This document shows, in pieces, positions 35,084 to 50,226 of a stretch of DNA of 64,000 nt; positions within the stretch are counted from its first letter, which is position 1, and each line of letters starts with the position of its first letter. The translations under genes and the position numbers were made by a program. The notes beneath the pieces were generated by a model, which searched no databases, had not been told where the DNA came from, and saw nothing but the letters and a program-made list of their open reading frames with translations. Source of the stretch: an uncultured archaeon (GTDB lineage: Archaea > Thermoproteota > Bathyarchaeia > Bathyarchaeales > Bathycorpusculaceae); NCBI GenBank assembly GCA_963782915.1, contig CAWALK010000012.1, positions 192,001 through 256,000 on the forward strand, given 5' to 3'.

Positions 35084-35472
35084 TTAACTGATTGAGACTG
35101 TGTCGTTTTCTACTGTTACTTTATTGCCTGTCTTAAATTTGGAGACGTCAATTTTGTCTACGAATGGGTATTTCGCTGATGATGGCTCCGACTGCGACGA
35201 TGGTTTCGGTTTCTTTGTTTATCATGGCTGCTGGGGCGACGCCGTTCTTTTTTAGGCGATAGAGCGTGTAGCTGCCCACTGTGCTGCCTTTGCCCTGTGG
35301 GAAGACGAGGATTTTGCCCTTCACGCTGACGCCGTTTAATTCGTGCCCTTTTTCCATAACTACGCCTGTGTTGGGGTCAACTCCGCCATAGAAGCTAATA
35401 GGCATCGTAGTTACCAGTGCTTCGCCTTGGGCTTTGCCTTTGTAGATTATTCGTGCCTTTTAATTGTTCCAT
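35084..35472 (-). CDS. Aconitase X small subunit (DUF126), phosphomevalonate dehydratase small subunit; frameshifted
   Basis: [26 protein letters not shown]. Confidence 0.88.
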
Positions 35473-36661
35473 TTTCCGGTCACCGCTGCATTAACGCATT
35501 CTTCCATACTGCCCATCTTGGTTTTCATGAGGCTCTGTCTCGAGTAGAAGCAGCCCTTCGCCGATGTGGTTGCTAAGGCTTTGAATCTGCCTTTTAATGG
35601 CGCTACTGCCATGCAGGTGTCGCATGCGAATTTGCCGCCTGCTGCTTCGATGGTGGCTGTGTAGCCGCGTTTGTCCGCTAATTGTTTGGCTGTTCGTGAG
35701 GTTGCTACCCAGAGTTCTGTGCCTTCTTTGACTTTTTTGCCTTCGAGTAAGTCTGGCGATTTCTTGGATTTCTTTGATTGAGCAATGGGGGCAGCCGACG
35801 CAGACAAAATCTATGTCCTCTACGATCGTCGTTGATGTTGTCGTAGGCGTTTTTGATGTCTGCTGCTTCGATGGTTACTGTTTCTTTGGGTTGGGTTTGG
35901 GCTTCTGCTCCTGGTGTTATGCCTTTCATGTAGAAGAGCGGTTTAGCGCCGTAAGTTACTACTGAGGCGCAGAAGCTTTTGAGTTCATCCAGGGTTGCCG
36001 TTTTGATGCCTGTGATGTAGGGGATTTTGTTTTCTGCTTTTTTGCCGATGGCGTAGCCGAGTGCGCCCCAATCTGAGAGTTTGGTTAAGGGGGTGTTTAC
36101 TTGGACGTGGACATCTGGCACACGGTTTTCGTCGAGGTGTAAGCCGTAGCAGGGGGTTTTGCCCACAAATGCTGCTGCCAGTGCAGATGGTCCGCCTTCG
36201 CGGTTGGTGCGTGCACCCAACACTGAGTTGGCAAAAGTGACTGCGCTGCTTTCTGACCATGCGATGTGTTCGCCGTAGAGTGGCAGGTTGCCGATGAGGT
36301 AGGGTGTGCAGGTGCAGCTGATTAGGATGCCCATGCGTTGGAATGCGTCGATGACGAGGTTTTGTTTTTCTGCGAATTCGGGGCTGATGCCGAGTTGCTT
36401 CCAGTTTTCGAGGTCCATGCCTGCTGGGTTTAGGGTGGTCAGGACTTTGACTCTGCCATCCTTTGCGAGTGAGTCGAGGAATTCTAATCCGGCATCGCCG
36501 AGGTTATGGTAGCTTACGCCGGCTACTTGGACGCTGCCTACATCGATGAGGCTTTTAGCGCCGAAAATTTCTCCCAGCGCAACCAAGATTTCCATGCTTT
36601 TGCGGACGGCGTAGCCTTCTTTGCCATCCAGCATTGCTTGCTCTTGCTTAGTCAATTCCAT
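35460..36661 (-). CDS. Aconitase X large subunit (DUF521), phosphomevalonate dehydratase large subunit; frameshift near 35820
   Basis: TCTPY; WSESSA..NSVLGARTNREG; GCPH; DTCMAVAP. Confidence 0.9.
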
Positions 36662-36666
36662 AGCTA

Positions 36667-37983
36667 TCACAGGTACTTGTTTAGGTCAACTTTTACGTAG
36701 TCTACTTTACTAAAGCCTTTTCCCGTCGAAACCAAGGGTGCGGTGGCGTCTAAGCCTGCTTTGGCTGTGGTCGCCTTTTTGCCCTCGCTTAAGTCGCCTG
36801 AGGGGTCAAGAGATGAGCCGGGCTGGTTAGAGAGGATGACGCTGTTTTTGTCTGCTTGGAAACGTGTAGCGATTGCCCATTCCACGTCGTGTGGGTCATA
36901 GATGTTGATGTCTTCGTCGACTATGACGCAGTGCTTGAGTGAGCCATGCCCCTTGAAGGTGGCATCTATGGCTTTTCTGCCGTCATCCGGGTTTTGTTTT
37001 TTGATTTGGACAACGGCGTGTAGCCAGCTGCATCCGCCGGGTGTGATGTAGACGTCTTTGCATTGGCAGACTTTGCTGACTTCTTTGTAGATGGTTGGTT
37101 CTTTGGGCATGCCCATTAGGAATTTGTGCTCGTTTCTGCCCGCAAGGATGGTTTGGTAAATGGGGTTTTGGCGGTGTGTGACGCATTTGATTTCGACCAC
37201 GGGCTGTTGGCGTGTGCGGTCAACGATGCCGGTCAAGTCAAGGAAGGGTCCCTCTGTGGCTTTCTCTTTGGTAATTCTGCCTTCAAAGACGAATTCGCAG
37301 TCAGCGGGGACTTCTAAGTCAACTGTTTTACATTTCACCAAATCAGTTTTTTCTAGCACGTTTGCCATGCTTAACTCGTCAGCGCCCATCGGCAGGGTGG
37401 TGGCTGCTGAAAGCAGGGTTGCGGTTGAGTTGCCAAGGCAAATTGCGATGTCTAATTCGCCGCCTGCCTTAGCCAGCGCGGTATCTGTGCCTCTGTGCTC
37501 GACGATGCGGGCGACAAAATGGTTCTTGTCTTTAAGCATCAATCGGTGGAAGCACATGTTGCGTTTGCCCGTTTCCGGGTCTTTGACGATGGAGACGGCT
37601 GAGGCGATGTATTTTCCGCCGTCCTTGTCGGTGTAATGCATTATTGGGAGTTTGGTTAAGTCCACATCTGCGCCTGTATGGACGACTTCTTGGCAAGGGG
37701 CTTTCTCTACCATTTGTGGCGCAACTGGATGCTCGATGGCGTCAAGCAGTTTTGGCAGAAGTTGCTCTTTTGTGATGCCCATACTGCGGCAAATCAGCTC
37801 TTTAGAAGAAACCAACCCAGCCACCACTGGGATGCTGGATTCTTTGACGTTCTCGAAAAGGACTGGTTTTTCGCCGAGTGCAGCGATGATGCCTGCCATC
37901 TCAAACTCGGTTGAGACGGGCTTTGTGATCTTGGTTAATTCATTGGTTTTTTGGAGTTGTTCTATAAAGTTTCTTAAGCCCAC
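36667..37983 (-). CDS. UbiD-family decarboxylase (probable anhydromevalonate phosphate decarboxylase)
   Basis: DGGKY; EGPF; VDEDINIYD..VEWAIATR; SSLDPS; co-oriented with the AcnX genes. Confidence 0.9.
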   Translation of the reverse strand: MGLRNFIEQLQKTNELTKITKPVSTEFEMAGIIAALGEKPVLFENVKESSIPVVAGLVSSKELICRSMGITKEQLLPKLLDAIEHPVAPQMVEKAPCQEVVHTGADVDLTKLPIMHYTDKDGGKYIASAVSIVKDPETGKRNMCFHRLMLKDKNHFVARIVEHRGTDTALAKAGGELDIAICLGNSTATLLSAATTLPMGADELSMANVLEKTDLVKCKTVDLEVPADCEFVFEGRITKEKATEGPFLDLTGIVDRTRQQPVVEIKCVTHRQNPIYQTILAGRNEHKFLMGMPKEPTIYKEVSKVCQCKDVYITPGGCSWLHAVVQIKKQNPDDGRKAIDATFKGHGSLKHCVIVDEDINIYDPHDVEWAIATRFQADKNSVILSNQPGSSLDPSGDLSEGKKATTAKAGLDATAPLVSTGKGFSKVDYVKVDLNKYL

Positions 37984-38325
37984 TTTGGTTCGCCTTTAGC
38001 AGATTTAGCTGGTTGCTTCTTAAAAAACAATCGGCGTTTTGTCTTTTTTCTTTTGGGTGGGGGCAGTGCGGTTTGGGGTGTCCCATCCCATCTGGGGGTT
38101 GTGGGGGCGGTTGGTTTTTGTGTTTGGGCTGATTTTCAAGTGTTTTGTGGGTGGGTGGAGCTCTTTTTTTGTCCCATCGGGTATGTTGAGCTATGTTGGG
38201 TGGGATGGGGTGCGGATGGGGCAGTATGTTGAGTTGAGCAGATTTTTTGTTGGGCAATTTTTTGTTCTTCAGGTTCTGAGTAGGGAATTTATAAGTTTCT
38301 AGTGGCAACAGAGTTATCGATAGTT

Positions 38326-38787
38326 ATGCCGGGTAAAGTGTGGAAGGCAGAAGAAGAAGCACAATTAAGAGCCCTTGTTGAAGCCAACTTGAACGTGGAT
38401 GAAATCGCTGCTAAACTCAAAAAGACGCCCAAAGCAGTGATTACAAAAAGTCAACGTTTGGGTTTGCAGTTGCAGGTTAAGGGATATGTTGATACTGCGA
38501 TTGATCTTCCAAGGGAGTTGCTCAGTGTTGAGGAAACCGCAAAGATCCTATCAGGTGTCTTAAAGGCGTCCGTTAAACCCGGGTTGAACAGGCTTGAGGT
38601 CCAGCGGTTGATGGCTGTTGCTAACATCTCAAAGACGTATAAGGAAATAATTGTTGACTACATCCACATGCGAGAGGTGGAAGAAAAATTAGAGGAGGTA
38701 GTTGAGCAGAATGCGGCGCTCCAGCAGGCGATTCGAGAAATTCGGGAAAGAACCCCGAGCTTATCGCCCCAACCAGTTCCTAGCTAA
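38326..38787 (+). CDS. HTH plus coiled-coil protein, putative terminase small subunit
   Basis: WKAEEEAQLRAL..DEIAAKLKKTPKAV..RLGL HTH; overlaps the TerL start; TATA-like tttataag at 38288. Confidence 0.65.
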   Translation: MPGKVWKAEEEAQLRALVEANLNVDEIAAKLKKTPKAVITKSQRLGLQLQVKGYVDTAIDLPRELLSVEETAKILSGVLKASVKPGLNRLEVQRLMAVANISKTYKEIIVDYIHMREVEEKLEEVVEQNAALQQAIREIRERTPSLSPQPVPS

Positions 38788-40180
38788 GTACCGTGAGCTT
38801 GAGCGGGAACATAATCAACTTAGGCAAACAGTTACGGAGCGGACGCAACAATTAAGCGCTAATACTGCTGACTTTTTTGAGCAGGTCTTGGGTTTTAAAC
38901 TCTTTGCCTATCAAAAAGAGTTCGCGGATATCTTTGAAAATAACCAGTTTACGGCTGCCCGTTGGTGTCGCCAAAGCGGAAAAAGCCAAACCATATCTGC
39001 GCTGCTGCTAAAGTACGCGGTTACCCACCCCAACGCGGAGATCGGTATAGTGGGGCCTTCTTGGCGGCAAACCAAAAGAATCATATCACGAATAGCCATC
39101 CTCGCCCACAAGCTACCACCAAGCATTGTCTTTAAGCCACAAAAAACCCGGATCAGTTTTGTTAACGGAAGCAGCATTGAAGCTTTCCCTAACAACCCTG
39201 AAACAATCAGAGGCCCAACATTTGATGTAGTGTATGCGGATGAGTTCAACTTTGTAGCTAACGACCAAGACCTCTACGACGCCATCCTCTACACGCTTGC
39301 AACTACCAATGGTAAATTCGTCTGCAGCAGCACGCCCTGGAACACTGATAGCGTCTTTTACAAGATTTTTAACCATAAGAATTTTGGGGAATTCAAAACT
39401 TCGCATGTTACATTCAATCAGGCGCTAAGCCCAAATGGTCCACTCTTGCCAAAAACCCTGCAGAGTATCAAGACGCAGATGGGCGAGGACCCCTCCCGTT
39501 GGCAGAGGGAAATGATGGCGGATTGGGTTGAAGACGATAACGTCTGGCTAAATCAGAGCCTAATTGCTTCCTGTATTGGCACTGAAAAAAGTTGCAGCAT
39601 GGATCTACAGTTGTTTAACTCCGAGAAAAGCTATGAAGGCGACTTCTATTTGGGTTTGGACCCGGCACAAACCAGGGACTTTCACGTGTTGTCAGTGGTG
39701 GAGGTAGTTGATGAAAAGCTTTTGCTGAGGCATCTAAAGATTTTTCCACATCCCACCTATGACGCCACCGTTTTGGGTTACATCAAAGCCCTGCAAGATC
39801 GCTGGGGCGGATTCCAAAAAATTCGAGTCGACATCACCCGTGAAGGTCCAAGCTTCATTGCTGACATGGAAAATGCCGACATAGAGAATGCTGAGGGCGT
39901 TAACTTCAGTGTACCCCGCAAAAGCGAGATGGCCAACCTACTTAAGAAACGCATGCAAGACAGACGCTTCTTCTATCCCATGGTGTCGTTTGAGAAACCA
40001 TACCGGGGCGATATCTGCAACGAGTTAAATATAGAGCGGTTTGCGCTGCGTGCAGACGGAGGATTATCATTTAGTCATCCGCAGGGAACACACGACGACG
40101 TTTTCTGGAGTATAGCCTTAGCTGTATATGCAACGGCTGACATGGCACCTGAACCCTACTTGGCAGTTATGCCAAGGTAA
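38711..40180 (+). CDS. Terminase large subunit (ATPase plus RNase H-like nuclease)
   Basis: LFAYQ, CRQSGKS Walker A, IRG..VYADE Walker B, SSTP, LGLDPA, HDDVFWSIALA; start codon uncertain (38702 or 38711). Confidence 0.9.
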   Translation: MRRSSRRFEKFGKEPRAYRPNQFLAKYRELEREHNQLRQTVTERTQQLSANTADFFEQVLGFKLFAYQKEFADIFENNQFTAARWCRQSGKSQTISALLLKYAVTHPNAEIGIVGPSWRQTKRIISRIAILAHKLPPSIVFKPQKTRISFVNGSSIEAFPNNPETIRGPTFDVVYADEFNFVANDQDLYDAILYTLATTNGKFVCSSTPWNTDSVFYKIFNHKNFGEFKTSHVTFNQALSPNGPLLPKTLQSIKTQMGEDPSRWQREMMADWVEDDNVWLNQSLIASCIGTEKSCSMDLQLFNSEKSYEGDFYLGLDPAQTRDFHVLSVVEVVDEKLLLRHLKIFPHPTYDATVLGYIKALQDRWGGFQKIRVDITREGPSFIADMENADIENAEGVNFSVPRKSEMANLLKKRMQDRRFFYPMVSFEKPYRGDICNELNIERFALRADGGLSFSHPQGTHDDVFWSIALAVYATADMAPEPYLAVMPR

Positions 40181-40640
40181 TCGGAAAATGTTAGATTCCG
40201 CAACCAATTTCGCCATATAGGTGCAGAGCCCAAGATAGACCCTGAGATATCGTCTAAATCGCGATAGTGGAGCGGCAAAAATATCCTACAACGAGCAATT
40301 AGGCCCGGATATGGGCATAGAAGCAATCACCTACCAGAGTCAAAGTCGACGATGGCAGAAATGAACCAAAAACTAAGCACTTTTAACAGAATAGTAATCT
40401 ACCCCAAATACCGAGCTATATGTCTCCGAGAAAAAATAAATCGCGTTAAAACCCACCGCGTGTTGGTGCTGAATAATTTGATGGTGATGAATATTTTTCA
40501 GTCGTTGATTCGTGTTTGTTATCCTCGGGAAAGCATGCAAGGACCCGATCGTTTCGGGTTGTTTGCGTTGTATGAGTCGCAGAATAAATGATTCTGTGGA
40601 CTAGAGAGATCTTACACCTAACTTTGGTCCAGAACCTGGT

Positions 40641-41083
40641 TTAAAGGTACGTTGATTGAGCTGGGCTTTGTGCAACACTCGAAACCTTAACTAACCAAGC
40701 ATCCCAGTAGTCAGTTCCAAAAGTGTTTGTGGAACCTGACAGTACAAAACCTCGTCACTAGATAATCATAGAAATCAATTGGTCGTCACCTGTTCCTCCG
40801 TAGGTTTGATTCCATAAATGTTGCCAGAAGAATCGGTCTTAACTAACCAAGCGTCCGCTTTGCCCTCACCCGAAGAGGCTGTGTAGCCTGCAGTGGCGTA
40901 TCCGCCGTCGAATGTTTGTATTACAGAAAAAGCCCACTCCGCTCAGGTTCCTCCGAAGGTTTTGCTCCAAACCTGACTGCCAGACTGGGTTGAATCAGTG
41001 AATGCGTCAATTGTATTGGGCGCATTTGCCGCTGCAACTGTTACGATCAACAGCAAAACCAAGCTTTTGTTTAGGATACTCAT
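40641..41083 (-). pseudogene. Decayed secreted beta-propeller (WNQTYGG-repeat) gene
   Basis: Minus strand reads signal peptide, WSKTFGGT, SVIQTFDGGY, DAWLVKTDSSGN, WNQTYGG, with multiple shifts/stops and truncation. Confidence 0.7.
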
Positions 41084-41265
41084 GGGTTCGCTTTTTATGG
41101 CGGGCAATAAATATCCTTATTTGTCCAATTTTCTTGTCTAAGTCTTGTGAAGGTTTCTGGACTAAATCGGTGGCGTCGATAGCGGTCGATTACAATCTTA
41201 ATTGGCACTGTTTAGATGCGTAAAAACTAAAAAGAAATTGAGACTGGGCTTTTGTGCCCAGCTGT

Positions 41266-42207
41266 TTAGTAGGTTACGATGCCGATTCTGGTCATCAAAT
41301 AATCGTAGCCTGCACCTTTGAAGGCACCTACGACTTTACCTTGAACTTCTTTGCCGGGAGTCAGTGCAACCATGCAACCTCCGCCTCCGCCGCCGGTCAA
41401 CTTGGCGCCGAATGCACCCTGCTTACGGGCGATATCAACGAGTTGGTCAAGTTCTTTGCTGGACACGCCGATTTCTTGGAGTATGCGGTGGTTTTCGTTC
41501 ATGAGGTCGCCGCATTTTTTGAGATCGCCTGCTTCGAGTGCTTTTCGCCCTGCAACTGCTAGAGATTCCGCTTGTTTGAAGAGTGGGTCATATTTGGCTG
41601 GGTTAGCTTTTTTGCGGTCAGCGACGCCTTCAACCATGGCTTTGGTGTTGGCGGTTTTGCCTGTGCTGCCGATGACGATTTCGATTGGTTTGCGTACATG
41701 GATTTTTTCGACGAGGTCTTGTCCGCCTGCGGGGTTTTTCTTGAACCACATTAAGCCGCCGTAGGTTGCTGCGGTGTTGTCGATGCCTGATGGGTTGCCT
41801 GCGTAGGCTTTTTCGCCCTCGTAGGCGACTGCGTTGATTTGCTCGTTGGTTAAGCCTAAGTTGAGTTCTTCGCTGATGGCTCGTGCGATGGCGACGCTGG
41901 ATGCTGCTGAAGCGCCTAGGCCGCTGAAGCCGGGTAATGTGCCGCCTATCCAGATGTCAAGCGGAGTTTTGGGGTCTAATTTCATGGCTTTTAGCATGCG
42001 TTCGATGGATTCGATTTGCTGGAGCCGTTTTTCTTCGCCGTAGCCTTTGGCGGTTTTGCGGTCGTCTTTTACGTTTAAGCCTTTTATGGCTTTTTTGACT
42101 TCTGCATCAGTGGAGGAATCAATCGCTGAAACTATGCCGGGAACTCCGTGGACAACGAAGTGTTCGCCGAATAGGATAACTTTTCCGTAACCTGAACCTT
42201 TACCCAT
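41266..42207 (-). CDS. mvk: Mevalonate kinase
   Basis: GKVILFGEHFVVHG; SGLGASAA; PSGIDN; KLTGGGGGG. Confidence 0.93.
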   Translation of the reverse strand: MGKGSGYGKVILFGEHFVVHGVPGIVSAIDSSTDAEVKKAIKGLNVKDDRKTAKGYGEEKRLQQIESIERMLKAMKLDPKTPLDIWIGGTLPGFSGLGASAASSVAIARAISEELNLGLTNEQINAVAYEGEKAYAGNPSGIDNTAATYGGLMWFKKNPAGGQDLVEKIHVRKPIEIVIGSTGKTANTKAMVEGVADRKKANPAKYDPLFKQAESLAVAGRKALEAGDLKKCGDLMNENHRILQEIGVSSKELDQLVDIARKQGAFGAKLTGGGGGGCMVALTPGKEVQGKVVGAFKGAGYDYLMTRIGIVTY

Positions 42208-42305
42208 TGTATGTTCACCTTGAAAGGTAGGTATGGGTTGCTTTTAGATAAAAATGTATGTTTTAGGAAGCAATTTTTGTTGCGGCTTTGATTCTAAATG
42301 GGGGG

Positions 42306-43422
42306 TTACGTTTGGTTGTCTAGTGCCCGATTGAAGTTCCGCAGCTTATCCTGCAGCAGCACCAACGCCAAAGCAATCGCCCCGGCAGCCGCCGCCGCAA
42401 TCCCCGCAGTCAAACCGAAATAGTTGCTATAGGTTACGTAGCGGTTGACTTCGTAGTTGACCTCTTTGCTGGTTGAGTCAGGATTATAGAAAACAATGTA
42501 GCGTGTGACCTGCTGATTTTCTTGTACCCATGCACTGATTGTGAATTGGCCCTTAGTGCCATTGAAGTTGGGGTTCATAGGTACGGTGGTGCCGTTTGGC
42601 CAGTACCCAACCGTTCCGTTTTCATTATTAACGTAAACTTCCACGAAACCGATGTCGGCATCAACTTGGAAGGTGTAGTCGCCTGTTTGATCTTGATAAG
42701 TTATGCATTGCTGGCCGTTTGCAGCTAAGGGGGTGATGCCTTTTGAAACTGTCTCTTGCCCCTGCAACGGATGGGAAAAAGTGTTTGCCGCCCAGAGCCC
42801 CGCCCCAAGAAGAATAATGGCGATTAATAATGAGGCGCCTTTTTTGCCAGTCCACTTGAAAGTCACAACTTTTGCCCTATTCTTAACCGTCCATACAGCG
42901 GGAACAGCCAAGAAACCTAGTACACCCGCCGCCATGAGAGCAATCCCTGCATAATAGCCTGCAGGATTTGATTCATACCAGTCACGCGAAACCTCAAAAT
43001 TCACCTGCTGCACAGCCGCTTCTGGGTTCCAGAAAACAACGTTAGCAACATCCGAAGAACGCGTTAACTACTCTCCAGTAATCCATTCTGTAAGAATCAT
43101 AATTGCCATGGTCCTCGGTTCCAGCCCATGACGCATTATAGTTGCCGCATAGCCAATCTTGTAGGGATTGATTGGAGATGGCGGCGGAAAAAACTGTGCC
43201 CGAATCCTTTGGAATACTAACATAAAGAGTGTAATCCCCCGACGCATCAAGCGGAACACTTCGATAGGTTGTTTGGTTGGCTGCTAAAGGGAAAGTTTCT
43301 GAACTTACAGCTACAGACCTTGCCTGAGGCCCAGAATAGTTCTCCTCCACGATCCATCCTGAAATAAGCATTAACACCGCAATCGCCAATACAAGAACCG
43401 AGAGCTTTCTGAAACGTGACAT
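42306..43422 (-). CDS. Hypothetical membrane protein with duplicated extracellular domains (frameshifted)
   Basis: ORFs 43042-43422 and 42306-43013 share a PLAAN..GDYT repeat. Confidence 0.6.
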
Positions 43423-47310: not shown

Positions 47311-48563
47311 GTGTCATCAATCATCGAGGACCTCATTGCCCGAAAAATTTTCAATAACCGCGGCGATGAAACCATAGAAGTCGATGTAATCACTGCGGGT
47401 GGATTCGGACGTGCAGGTGCTCCAGCAGGCAAAAGCAGAGGCAAAGCTGAAGTAGTATACTATCCACAAGGCGGCGTTGAGGCAGCCATAAAAAAAGTCG
47501 ATGATTTGATTGCACCTGAACTTGCAGGCTTAAACGCCGATTTCCAAGAAGAAATCGACAATACACTCCACGAAATCGATGGAACCACAGATTTCAAGAA
47601 CATCGGCGGAAACACCGCATTCGCCGTAAGCCTCGCAAACGCAGAAGCAGCAGCCAACGCCACGGATTATTATTATTCCAGTTTCTTGGCGGAAACGCAG
47701 CAACCACCCTACCTTACCCATTGGGTAACTGCATAAGCGGCGGCGCACATGCCCGCGGCAAAGCACCCAGCGTACAAGAATACCTAGCGTTGCCCCATGG
47801 CGCGGAAAGTTTCCTCGAAGCCCAAACCGCCAATACACAAATCCACAAAAAAATCGGAGACTCACTCAAAAAGAAATCCACCACGTTTAACGGTGGCAAA
47901 AGCGACGAAGGCGCATGGATAGCAAACATCTCAACCGACGACGCCTTCGAAGTTATGGCTAAAGCCTGCGAAGAAGTAGGCAACGAAATGGATTTCGAAT
48001 GCGGCTTTGGCATAGACGTTGCAGCTAGCAGTTTCTGGAAGCCAAAAGAAGAAAAATATATCTATGAAAACGAAGGCATAAAACGCGATACAGCCGAACA
48101 ACTCGAGTACATGCTAAGTTTAATAGAGAAATATCATTTAGAATATGTTGAAGATCCATTCCATGAAGATGACTTCGACAGCTTCGCAGAACTTACCAAG
48201 AAATCAAAGAATTGCTTAATTTGCGGCGACGATTTGTTCACAACTAATACTGAAAGGTTAAATAACGGAATTAAGATTAACGCTGGAAACGCTATCATCA
48301 TCAAAGTCAACCAGATAGGCACATTAACCGATGCAGCTGAAACAATCGAGACCGCATTACGCAACGGTTATGTTCCTGTCGTGTCACATCGGTCAGGCGA
48401 CACATGCGATTGGCACATCGCCCATTTGGCTGTAGCCTACAAATGCCCAGTCATCAAAACTGGCACAGTTGAAGGTTCACGTATAGCCAAACTAAACGAG
48501 CTAATACGCATCGAGCATTTCCTTGGCAACAGAGCCAAAATGGCTGACCTAAATATACACTAA
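47311..48563 (+). CDS. eno: Enolase (frameshift near 47660)
   Basis: IFNNRG..EVDV; GGAHA; EDPF; GDDLF; IKVNQIG; SHRSGD. Confidence 0.92.
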
Positions 48564-48570
48564 AGAGAAG

Positions 48571-49368
48571 ATGAACCCAATGTCTGAAGACCAAGTTAAA
48601 GAAAATCAACCAACAGAAAACCCGGAAGAAGAGCAAGAAGAAGAAATCGAAACCGTAGAGGCTCCACAAGAAGAAACCACTGAAGTCGCCGCTGAAGAAA
48701 CCGCAGAAGGCGAAGCAGAGGAAGAAGAAGCACAGGAAGCCCAACCGGAAGAAACCCTCCTTCTACCAAGAGACACCCTGCTCTCCGCAGGCATCCACAT
48801 CGGCACAAGGATGAAAACACTCGACATGGAACCATTCATCTACCGTGTCCGACCAGACGGCTTATTCGTCTTAGACGTCAAAAAAACAGACGACCGCATC
48901 AGAGTAACAGCAAAATTCCTTTCACGATATGAACCATCCAAAGTTGCCATAGCAGCAACCCGCCTATACGCACATGAACCAGTCAAAATGTTCTGCAAAC
49001 TAACAGGCGCAACACCACTCATCGGCAGATTCATCCCAGGCCAACTATCAAATCCACAATACAAAAACCGCGTTGACCCAGAAGTCATCCTCGTATGTGA
49101 CCCACGTGCAGACGCACAAGCAGTCAAAGAAGCATCCACCGTCGGCATACCCATCGTTGCACTCTGCAGCACAGACAACGAATTCTCAGGCGTAGACCTA
49201 GTCATCCCAACCAACAACAAAGGCCGCCGTGCACTCGCAGTCATATTCTGGCTCTTAGCACGCCAAGTCCTCAGAGAAAGAGGCGAATTAGGCGCAGACA
49301 AAGACCCATCCGTAACCATCGAAGACTTTGAAGCAAAAGTCACACGCGAAGAGGAGGAGGACACCTAA
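48571..49368 (+). CDS. rps2: 30S ribosomal protein S2 with acidic N-terminal extension
   Basis: AGIHIGT; GRFIPG; IPTNNKGRRALA. Confidence 0.95.
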   Translation: MNPMSEDQVKENQPTENPEEEQEEEIETVEAPQEETTEVAAEETAEGEAEEEEAQEAQPEETLLLPRDTLLSAGIHIGTRMKTLDMEPFIYRVRPDGLFVLDVKKTDDRIRVTAKFLSRYEPSKVAIAATRLYAHEPVKMFCKLTGATPLIGRFIPGQLSNPQYKNRVDPEVILVCDPRADAQAVKEASTVGIPIVALCSTDNEFSGVDLVIPTNNKGRRALAVIFWLLARQVLRERGELGADKDPSVTIEDFEAKVTREEEEDT

Positions 49369-49372
49369 AAGT

Positions 49373-50226
49373 TTGTCTCCGCTCCGGCGTGCAGTAGTTG
49401 CTTCTCAATTTTATGAGGGCAGCGCCGAAGCGCTCAGAGCACAACTTAACGGTTGTTTTCTCCATAAACTCGGACCACAAAAAACCCCCAAAATTAACCA
49501 AACAACTCACCCACGAAACATCGTGGGTTTAATTTGTCCCCACGCAGGCTACTTGTATAGTGGCCCCGTGGCGGCATCTGCTTTTTACGAATTAGCTATC
49601 GATGGCAAACCCGACACTGTCGTTCTTTTAGGACCTAACCATACTGGGTATGGCAGCGCACTTTCAATTATGCGTGAGGGCACATGGCAAACCCCACTTG
49701 GCAATGTGGAAATCGATTCGGCAGTGGCTGATGCGATTCTTGCATGAAACCAAAATTTTAGACGTTGACGAACTTGCGCACCGCTTTGAGCATTCACTCG
49801 AAGTCCAACTGCCTTTCCTGCAGTATCTCTATGGCAACGCATTCAAGATTGTGCCCATTTCGTTTTTGATGCAGGATTATGATTCAGCAGTTGAAGTTGG
49901 CAGAGCACTGGTTGAAGCCTTGGATGCCACAAATTCAGTTGTAATTGCCTCTTCTGACATGACCCACTATGAACCTGCGAAGGTGGCGGCAGCTAAAGAC
50001 CACGCCGCCCTCGAAGCAAGTCACCGCCCTAAATGCCAAAGGCTTCTACGAAACCGTTGAAAGCCAGAACATCACCGCATGCGGCTACGCCCCAATAACC
50101 GCATTAATCACCTATGCAGTCGGCGTCAACGCAAAAGCCGAATTGTTCAGCTACCATAACAGCGGCGACATAACAGGCGACCCCTCAAGCGTCGTCGGCT
50201 ATGCAGCAGTAAAATTCAGCAAGTAG
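49373..50226 (+). CDS. amrB: MEMO1-family protein (AmmeMemoRadiSam protein B), frameshifted
   Basis: PHAGYLYSG; GPNHTG; EHSLEVQLPFL; SSDMTHY; CGYAP; VVGY across three frames. Confidence 0.9.

Follow-up and report, generated by a model that had tools for sequence, protein, structure and literature searches.

An intact terminase gene pair of provirus origin, outside any virion module, at a shared chromosomal junction in Bathyarchaeia

Terminase genes generally count as hallmarks tied strictly to virions, and proviruses are called with their help. Gene transfer agents (GTAs) of the RcGTA type keep a complete head-tail cluster with the terminase, and phage-inducible chromosomal islands (PICIs) and capsid-forming PICIs are phage satellites with packaging genes of their own. 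For bacteria, the domestication of genes from defective prophages was reportedly described by Bobay, Touchon and Rocha in 2014. Here we describe a stretch of 64 kb (the window) from the genome of an uncultured archaeon of the Bathyarchaeia (contig CAWALK010000012.1, positions 192,001 to 256,000), in which a gene for a large terminase subunit (TerL) and an overlapping upstream gene for a helix-turn-helix (HTH) protein form a pair with no virion gene beside it. A Bathy-6 provirus with terminase, integrase and structural genes appears in the accessible part of PMC11697101, and bacterial incomplete prophages preferentially lose terminase genes according to the accessible part of PMC7744054. No orphan or virion-less archaeal terminase pair is described in the portions of the literature that our search covered, which included both of these papers and bioRxiv 10.1101/2023.08.24.554615. 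The window's own genome is referred to as G000, its contigs as C1, C11, C12 (which carries the window), C13, C18, C19 etc., and related genomes likewise by number.

Judged from its sequence, the TerL of the window is an intact large terminase with all ATPase and nuclease motifs. It matches the Pfam family Terminase_6N well above the cut-off (1.3e-16, 61.4 bits against 22), whereas Terminase_6C matches only below it (0.031, 14.7 bits against 22.6), and PHROG_2, 'terminase large subunit', covers residues 52-476 (3.2e-36). A phmmer search aligned the protein with T4 gp17 structures (PDB 3ezk, 3cpe and 2o0h; 8.9e-15), with RQSGKS as Walker A, VVYADE as Walker B, SSTP as the coupling motif and LGLD as the first nuclease aspartate. 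The first-pass annotation, made from the DNA letters alone, had named seven catalytic motifs, covering the ATPase and the nuclease aspartates, and all seven proved to be conserved over 30 family members, the last motif missing in one truncated row. The ATPase motifs (Walker A, Walker B and coupling) are kept in 30/30 rows, and D320, D377 and D465/D466, acidic residues of the putative C-terminal RNase-H-like nuclease, are invariant in an alignment of 24 sequences. The likely start at ATG 38711 was placed by alignment with homologues, and short-read contigs from the closest run, X1, match three parts of the gene with 0-2 mismatches and no gaps. The TerL family comprises 1521 proteins at E ≤ 1e-10, called Bathyarchaeota/Bathyarchaeia terminases or 'FluMu gp28-like' at the source; no NCBIfam family matched either protein of the pair. 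Of 41 related genomes, 31 have matches to TerL, as do 19 of the 24 genus genomes, often as several intact copies plus fragments.

Two further features of the family were observed. Three close TerL homologues (P0022, P0026 and P0044; 75-85% identity, 573-645 aa) carry Hint/intein domains (PF14890, PF07591) and are read as intein-bearing terminases; open reading frames (ORFs) of more than 600 aa, intein-bearing or fused, were excluded from the trees. C-terminal TerL fragments of 25-120 residues are scattered in many genus genomes (for example G000:C20:432026-432382 and C15:284427-284519), some directly following an intact copy (G010, G022 and G054). This pattern suggests recurrent insertion or replacement with its endpoint at the 3' end of TerL.

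Linkage of TerL to virion genes was scored with 26 provirus-core families (F0-F25) drawn from four related proviruses; a locus is called virion-less when it matches none of them, and the generic families F18 (ABC transporter) and F23 (PQQ-like) were excluded from linkage counts. Of the first 22 intact TerL loci, 4 lay in virion modules and 18 did not. In trees with 75 IMG/VR sequences, the TerL of the window fell into a clade of 15 rows consisting only of orphan copies (8 from the site beside the UbiD gene described below and 7 from elsewhere; support 99-100). The sister of this clade is an IMG/VR contig, and the best identity of any IMG/VR TerL to that of the window is 64%. Addition of 62 metagenome TerLs enlarged the clade to 43 rows, none of them viral or provirus-linked. 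Where the upstream flank reached 1.3 kb or more, 0/15 clade loci from genomes and 0/13 from metagenomes had a virion family, compared to 23 of the 26 metagenome loci outside the clade and 79/79 IMG/VR loci with a full-length TerL of the family. As far as sampled, this TerL lineage thus appears to exist only as virion-less pairs, and its homologues do not always lie in complete proviruses.

The window itself agrees with this. A tblastn search of G000 with the 26 families returned, within the window, only the pair, a 47-aa remnant of family F12 and generic ABC/PQQ-like host genes, and Pfam searches of the genome with Phage_capsid and Phage_integrase gave no match on C12, bearing out the first-pass statement that the 64 kb contain no virion gene or integrase. 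With its motifs and frames whole, the pair is both orphan and intact. In the whole of G000, no intact tyrosine integrase was found with Phage_integrase; there are three fragmentary matches, one of which reaches the cut-off only together with its neighbours.

The pair lies between a UbiD-family decarboxylase gene and a mevalonate-kinase-like GHMP kinase gene, with AcnX beyond UbiD (Table 1). We take UbiD, the GHMP kinase and AcnX to be genes of the archaeal mevalonate route, and the pair splits what is otherwise a contiguous operon of kinase and UbiD-AcnX. A UbiD orthologue occurs in 38 of the 41 related genomes, and the site was surveyed in 25 genus genomes besides G000. Eight more distant members of the genus have an empty site, with the kinase gene upstream and 12-22 bp from UbiD on one strand. 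The pair stands 320-420 bp from the UbiD start, divergently transcribed, in G000, G014, G022, G054 and G055, and 5-14 kb from UbiD in G012, G023 and G010; G005 retains a 56-aa TerL stub, and seven other genomes have kinase-UbiD gaps of 0.1-2.3 kb with no TerL trace. The junction sequence is common to G000, G014 and G012 up to the promoter, with a secondary insertion of 6.8 kb in G012. UbiD also adjoins the pair in 8 metagenome contigs, and in a wetland contig UbiD and the kinase gene are direct neighbours. Overall, the pair occupies the same junction in at least seven sister species of Bathyarchaeia. A transposon with TerL as its transposase was considered and rejected, given the lack of terminal repeats and of conserved ends beyond the genes: around the pair at six loci, a search for terminal repeats and target duplications gave only short repeats at chance level (inverted repeats had no separate search).

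The eight site copies and one translocated copy form one TerL clade (support 98). The ratio of nonsynonymous to synonymous divergence (dN/dS, ω) was calculated by the NG86 method, with 9 of 36 pairs dropped for undefined dS. TerL gave ω values of 0.049-0.124 in 26 of the 27 computable pairs, the near-identical G022-G054 pair giving 0.269; the HTH gene gave 0.07-0.28 among site copies and UbiD 0.03-0.11 in the same genomes (dS 0.17-2.9). Compared with L188, the closest contig with DNA and the same synteny, TerL has dS 0.80 and ω 0.106, UbiD dS 0.99 and ω 0.074, and the kinase gene dS 1.02 and ω 0.084. As the TerL dS is comparable to that of the host flanks at a shared junction, the pair is older than the species split and has diverged about as far as its flanks under housekeeping-like constraint. 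At 75-90% identity, the median ω was 0.085 in the orphan clade and 0.070 for virus-borne TerL, dS being defined within the identity bands in 34 of 78 orphan and 27 of 150 sampled viral pairs. The orphan pair is therefore shared between species at one junction and is under purifying selection; with TerL ω of about 0.1, there is no sign of the relaxed selection that, in the first-pass annotation, would have spoken for decay.

Table 1. Features of the window (positions count from its first letter).
Feature	Position	Strand	Remarks
UbiD-family decarboxylase, left flank	36667-37983	-	Pfam UbiD 1.1e-63
GT-rich stretch	38038-38254		~170-220 nt, between UbiD and HTH gene
TATA-like box TTTATAA	38288-38294	+	read from sequence; ~33 nt before ATG 38327
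HTH/long-helix gene	38327-38787	+	153 aa; ORF opens GTG 38302 (38302-38787, 161 aa); likely start ATG 38327
Overlap of HTH and TerL genes	38711-38787	+	77 nt; different frames
TerL	38702-40180	+	ORF opens TTG 38702, 492 aa; likely start ATG 38711, 489 aa
Possible decayed tRNA-3'-half-like fragment (att-site remnant)	40213-40241	antisense to TerL	degenerate; weak evidence
F12 remnant (ABC-type ATPase)	40304-40444	+	47 aa; 124 nt after TerL
Short ORF with out-of-frame continuation	40600-41107	-	signal-peptide-like N-terminus
GHMP kinase (mevalonate-kinase-like), right flank	41266-42207	-	Pfam GHMP_kinases_N/C
Frameshifted host genes	35460-36670, 47311-48560, 49328-50217	-, +, +	AcnX twice, others once and twice

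The pair is, on sequence grounds, evidently of provirus origin, because the same two genes end related tailed-virus modules and an F12 remnant lies beside TerL. At four loci of relatives (G014 twice, G040 and G005), HTH-TerL forms the last part of a ~17-kb module encoding an HK97-type capsid protein, a cement/scaffold protein, a tail tube, a gp10-like protein and tail proteins. The order in these four proviruses and in IMG/VR loci is tail genes-F9-(F25)-HTH-TerL-F12, F12 being an ABC-type ATPase that follows TerL in most of the 79 IMG/VR loci; in the proviruses a tyrosine integrase lies further on, beside a tRNA-Leu gene in one of them. The remnant in the window shares 49% identity over 47 aa with F12 of G005 (blastx, 1e-5 in a small database) and 82.6% over 92 nt with the F12 gene of the provirus remnant on C11 (blastn), and was also matched by tblastn. 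Clear CTGGGATTTGAACCC-type tRNA-3'-half-like fragments occur 41-48 nt past the TerL stop in 10 other orphan loci, and a degenerate copy in the window aligns with them; such a fragment was found in none of the viral contigs, and no full tRNA adjoins any of the 11 orphan loci scanned.

G000 also holds remnants of related proviruses on C11, C18, C19 and C1. In the remnant on C11 (G000:C11:130962-146700; loci L003-L005 and L010), a clean deletion of 1790 bp has removed HTH-TerL between HTH codon 38 and a point 41 nt short of the TerL stop. An inverted HTH-TerL copy with multiple breaks is found 12 kb to the left, and the capsid, F15 and tail-tube genes of the remnant are split. The first-pass annotation had favoured a domesticated module over a decaying provirus: that the pair is not merely decaying stands, although the F12 remnant, the tRNA-like fragment and the provirus remnants elsewhere in the genome had been missed.

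These traces also bear on a plainer explanation, namely that the pair is a non-functional provirus leftover, either overwritten by recombination with the TerL of infecting viruses or decaying slowly. Besides the provirus traces beside the pair, the same genomes hold many TerL fragments and broken copies, and the decaying modules of G000 include the clean HTH-TerL deletion on C11. Signs of exchange are present as well: in G022 and G054 the pair has dS 0.02 against 0.17 for UbiD, and between G010 and G023 TerL has dS 1.18 against 0.38 for UbiD and 0.31 for the HTH gene. However, a relic would hardly keep ω at ~0.1 over dS of ~0.8-2.7 with intact frames in at least 28 loci, or a junction common to species with a host-gene dS of ~1. 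No virus-borne TerL falls in the clade to act as donor, the closest viral protein being only 64% identical, and the terminase loss reported for bacterial incomplete prophages (PMC7744054, in the part accessible) also argues against a passive leftover. A plain relic is accordingly improbable.

The partner gene was assigned its start at ATG 38327 (MPGKVW...) by alignment with homologues, an alignment of 23 sequences having the start MTGKxW. An AF2 model built on 23 homologues (pLDDT 79.5) consists of three short helices within residues 16-52, one more helix (76-90) and a long one (97-150), and the N-terminal domain superposes on the DNA-binding domain of GcrA (5yiu; TMt 0.85, rmsd 1.1 Å). The sequence matches PHROG_323 (5.9e-9) and, under the cut-off, Pfam GcrA (1.3e-4). 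The gene family, F10, directly precedes TerL and is listed in 73 of the 79 viral loci, and the HTH-TerL pairing is kept in 23/23 loci first examined. An N-terminal HTH followed by a helical oligomerisation region is the architecture expected of a small terminase subunit (TerS), and the model matches it in architecture only. The protein is thus a putative small terminase or a TerL-linked DNA-binding partner, the TerS label coming from position and architecture only. Of the first-pass term 'TerS-like', the gene position, the overlap and the HTH-plus-helix architecture stood, and structure prediction returned the HTH/long-helix model; a TerS family or fold did not follow, the fold being GcrA-like. 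A predicted TerL-HTH complex scored 0.02 against a mark of 0.32, which gives no verdict, and nothing is drawn from it.

The overlap of the two genes in the window recurs at 77-86 nt in G014, G022 and G012 (mechanical ORF calls), and both of its frames are conserved as protein. Two sister species, G014 and G012, share the TTTATAA box ahead of the HTH gene and also keep ~55 nt ending in (A/C)TTTATAAG upstream of the gene; the box is probably the pair's own promoter. The overlapping HTH/coiled-coil gene and the TATA-like box that the first-pass annotation had placed ahead of TerL are thereby both corroborated.

One argument of that annotation, that the pair is free of frameshifts although many neighbours are not, turned out to be worthless. 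Host genes near the pair contain ~5 frameshifts in the ~8.9 kb of conserved coding sequence compared, namely two in AcnX and one and two in two other genes. At the AcnX sites (~35754 and ~35825), short-read contigs from other runs are one base shorter than the window, so the neighbouring frameshifts are most likely assembly indel errors. Because ~1.1 errors would be expected in the 1.9-kb pair at this rate, and zero would occur by chance with P ~0.33 (our own estimate), its clean reading frame is unremarkable and carries no weight.

Taken together, the pair is probably functional and selected, as judged from the genomic comparisons. TerL is taken as a working terminase because its ATPase and nuclease residues and its partner are kept under a constraint as tight as that in viruses; action in trans is considered most likely, since the cassette has no capsid of its own. 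We favour a reading in which a provirus-derived cassette of two genes, with its own promoter, a DNA-binding HTH/coiled-coil protein and TerL, would have come to stand between UbiD and the mevalonate-kinase-like gene, as a leftover or by installation there, in the ancestor of a group of Bathyarchaeia species; since then it would have been passed on with the chromosome while purifying selection kept it intact. The HTH protein would choose a DNA site at which TerL would cut, and TerL could also translocate DNA. During infection by, or induction of, related tailed viruses, which are common in these genomes, the cassette would act in trans, and helper procapsids would package and spread DNA starting at or near it, as a satellite would or as in lateral transduction. 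The presence of related viruses (the remnants on C11, C18, C19 and C1, and TerL in most genomes of the genus) speaks for this. So do signs of movement between genomes or contexts: besides the dS contrasts of G022-G054 and G010-G023, the G008 and G005 copies, set in unrelated contexts, are homologous over 1.88 kb only, a stretch that begins ~60 nt ahead of the HTH gene, ends with the TerL stop and contains exactly the promoter and the pair. TerL activity, recognition of a DNA site by the HTH protein and dependence on helper capsids are all presumed from the sequences. The whole statement, mechanism included, has somewhat less than an even chance in our estimate, and the particular mechanism (in trans, helper capsids, cassette-centred packaging) is tentative and rather more apt to be wrong than right.

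Several observations weigh against the favoured reading. The integrase, replication gene and flanking repeat expected of a conventional satellite are absent, no pac site was identified, and no replication or regulation module is conserved at the 36 orphan loci. If headful packaging took the flanks along, they ought to be homogenised across species, whereas in G022/G054 the divergence of UbiD exceeds that of the pair. No capsid gene of the related virus family is found in G010 and G022 despite their intact pairs. The HTH protein matched no TerS family in Pfam, PHROGs or NCBIfam, and fold searches of its model against PDB and BFVD returned GcrA-like and other HTH proteins, with no terminase among the matches listed. 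The node at the base of the 43-row clade has a low FastTree label (23); the term virion-less refers to families that we ourselves chose; a PHROG scan of 134 neighbour ORFs gave 62 families, of which the 25 commonest, the ones visible, include none for head, tail, portal or integrase; and the ω values are rough because dS is saturated in many pairs.

The distribution of capsid genes bears on where a capsid might come from. Capsid genes of the related virus family occur in 10 of the 24 genus genomes, compared to 19 for TerL, and the genome-wide search that the first-pass annotation had called for located an intact capsid gene on C18 and none on the window contig. A GTA-like domestication, in which the pair would serve resident head-tail modules lacking TerL and package host DNA for the benefit of the host, could draw on the modules of G000 without a cognate TerL on C11 (where the terminase is deleted) and C18, and on the closed genome G014, where two of the four intact capsid genes stand at a distance from all TerL matches. 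However, the C11 and C18 modules are fragmented in several genes, to an extent blurred by assembly errors, the TerL of the orphan clade shares no more than 55-65% identity with the TerL types accompanying those modules, and no conserved regulator or cluster was seen. For G010 and G022, where no resident capsid gene of the family was found, infecting viruses have to be the source of any capsid. GTA-like use of resident capsids, as the first-pass annotation had suggested, is hence unlikely in general, and domestication of this kind is quite improbable here.

The recurrent neighbours of the orphan pairs are host genes and PIN/MazE-type pairs, and at 36 orphan loci no neighbour families are conserved besides host genes and toxin-antitoxin pairs. 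The pairs lie in variable regions near MNT/HepT toxin-antitoxin pairs, an AAA_14/DUF4143 ATPase and a pPIWI-associated nuclease, and some genomes carry several diverged in-clade copies (three in G015 and two in G012). A second intact TerL of G000, 58% identical to the first, lies on C13 (L009; 4339-6401), next to an HTH gene broken into two ORFs. This TerL has an MNT/HepT pair and a pPIWI-associated nuclease in its flanks and a clear tRNA-3'-half-like fragment 42 nt past its stop, and is nearly identical to the G002 and G011 copies although the host genes differ by ~12%. As a second orphan of the same organism it was given little weight, as the 12.7-kb contig may be a recent transfer or mis-binned.

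Such a setting is compatible with anti-viral interference, in which the HTH protein would recognise the packaging site of incoming viruses and TerL would cut their concatemers early or block portals, lowering the virus yield; several diverged copies per genome would then match several virus lineages. Apart from this neighbourhood and the multiple copies, such a role would fit the faster evolution of the HTH gene compared to TerL (ω 0.07-0.28 against 0.05-0.12), the presence of the pair in genomes without a resident capsid gene (G010 and G022) and the abundance of related viruses in the genus. On the other side, PADLOC-DB 2.0 has 0 families for either protein, no terminase-based defence appeared in the portions of the literature searched, the association with defence genes is one of neighbourhood only, and the whole protein is constrained as tightly as viral TerL, seemingly beyond what cutting by itself would demand. 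Interference is unlikely on balance, and is nonetheless a close rival to packaging in trans, the relic and GTA readings being less likely. A broader possibility, which we regard as speculative and would not bet on, is an undescribed 1.9-kb 'terminase-only' element of Bathyarchaeia that split from tailed viruses, lost all their other genes, persisted, diversified into paralogous lineages and moved between genomes, either as a minimal hitch-hiker packaging the DNA next to it into helper-virus capsids or as an anti-virus system; in either form a viral packaging motor would have found a new use.

A role in the cell's own DNA metabolism, with no link to viruses, would have the exapted ATPase-nuclease and its DNA-binding partner cut at specific sites for repair, recombination or chromosome processing, for example. 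It could appeal only to general facts, namely the long vertical retention and the housekeeping-like ω. Such a role is very improbable: the pair is distributed patchily, with 8 genus genomes having an empty site and others having lost it, and the family is multi-copy, variable and located in variable islands.

Two other elements share the insertion site. The GT-rich stretch between UbiD and the HTH gene has 9 more copies (76-82% identity) on other contigs of G000, none beside other TerL copies, and is absent from proviruses; a diverged form lies upstream of UbiD in G014, G012, G022 and G054. It has no Rfam match, and an Rfam scan of 36000-43000 at E up to 1 found no RNA family; the stretch could be a miniature inverted-repeat transposable element, a promoter-bearing repeat or an RNA element. 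Between TerL and the kinase gene, the short ORF with its out-of-frame continuation looks like a decayed secreted-protein gene, and its part at 40839-41011 has a homologous stretch in the kinase-UbiD gap of G015.

A whole TerL lineage thus seems to live without virions under virus-like constraint in an abundant class of sediment archaea. If this is true, terminase matches alone would over-call proviruses in Bathyarchaeia, packaging motors could be kept for another purpose, e.g. gene mobilisation or virus interference, and the pair would give concrete, testable access to gene transfer or virus-host conflict in archaea that are still uncultured. Its retention is the opposite of what is reported for bacterial cryptic prophages, in which terminases belong to the genes lost first.

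The closest described relatives are the tailed viruses and proviruses of Bathyarchaeia (IMG/VR; G014, G040 and G005), which have the same two families with the same order, overlap and motifs at a TerL identity of 50-64%; there the pair follows tail genes and is followed by F12 and, later, an integrase, whereas in the window and its clade nothing viral is left but the F12 stub. T4 gp17 aligns with the TerL of the window over the ATPase domain and the first nuclease motif, though it is distant in sequence and the C-terminal nuclease is weakly matched by Terminase_6C. With bacterial defective prophages the locus shares a vertically inherited prophage remnant under purifying selection, and the features of a domesticated remnant are all present (an orthologous position across species, a viral remnant and dN/dS well below 1); it differs in that the terminase pair is what is retained, the host is an archaeon and the retained pair forms a multi-copy clade of its own. 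Like GTAs of the RcGTA type, it is a virus-derived terminase kept by a cell lineage through vertical inheritance and selection, but no intact structural cluster accompanies it, some genomes having none and G000 only the fragmented modules of C11 and C18. Compared with PICI-type satellites, the favoured reading would likewise make it a helper-dependent chromosomal element that lacks a complete set of virion genes and encodes packaging specificity, in a unit of only ~1.9 kb that dispenses with integrase, replication module, repressor and att pair.

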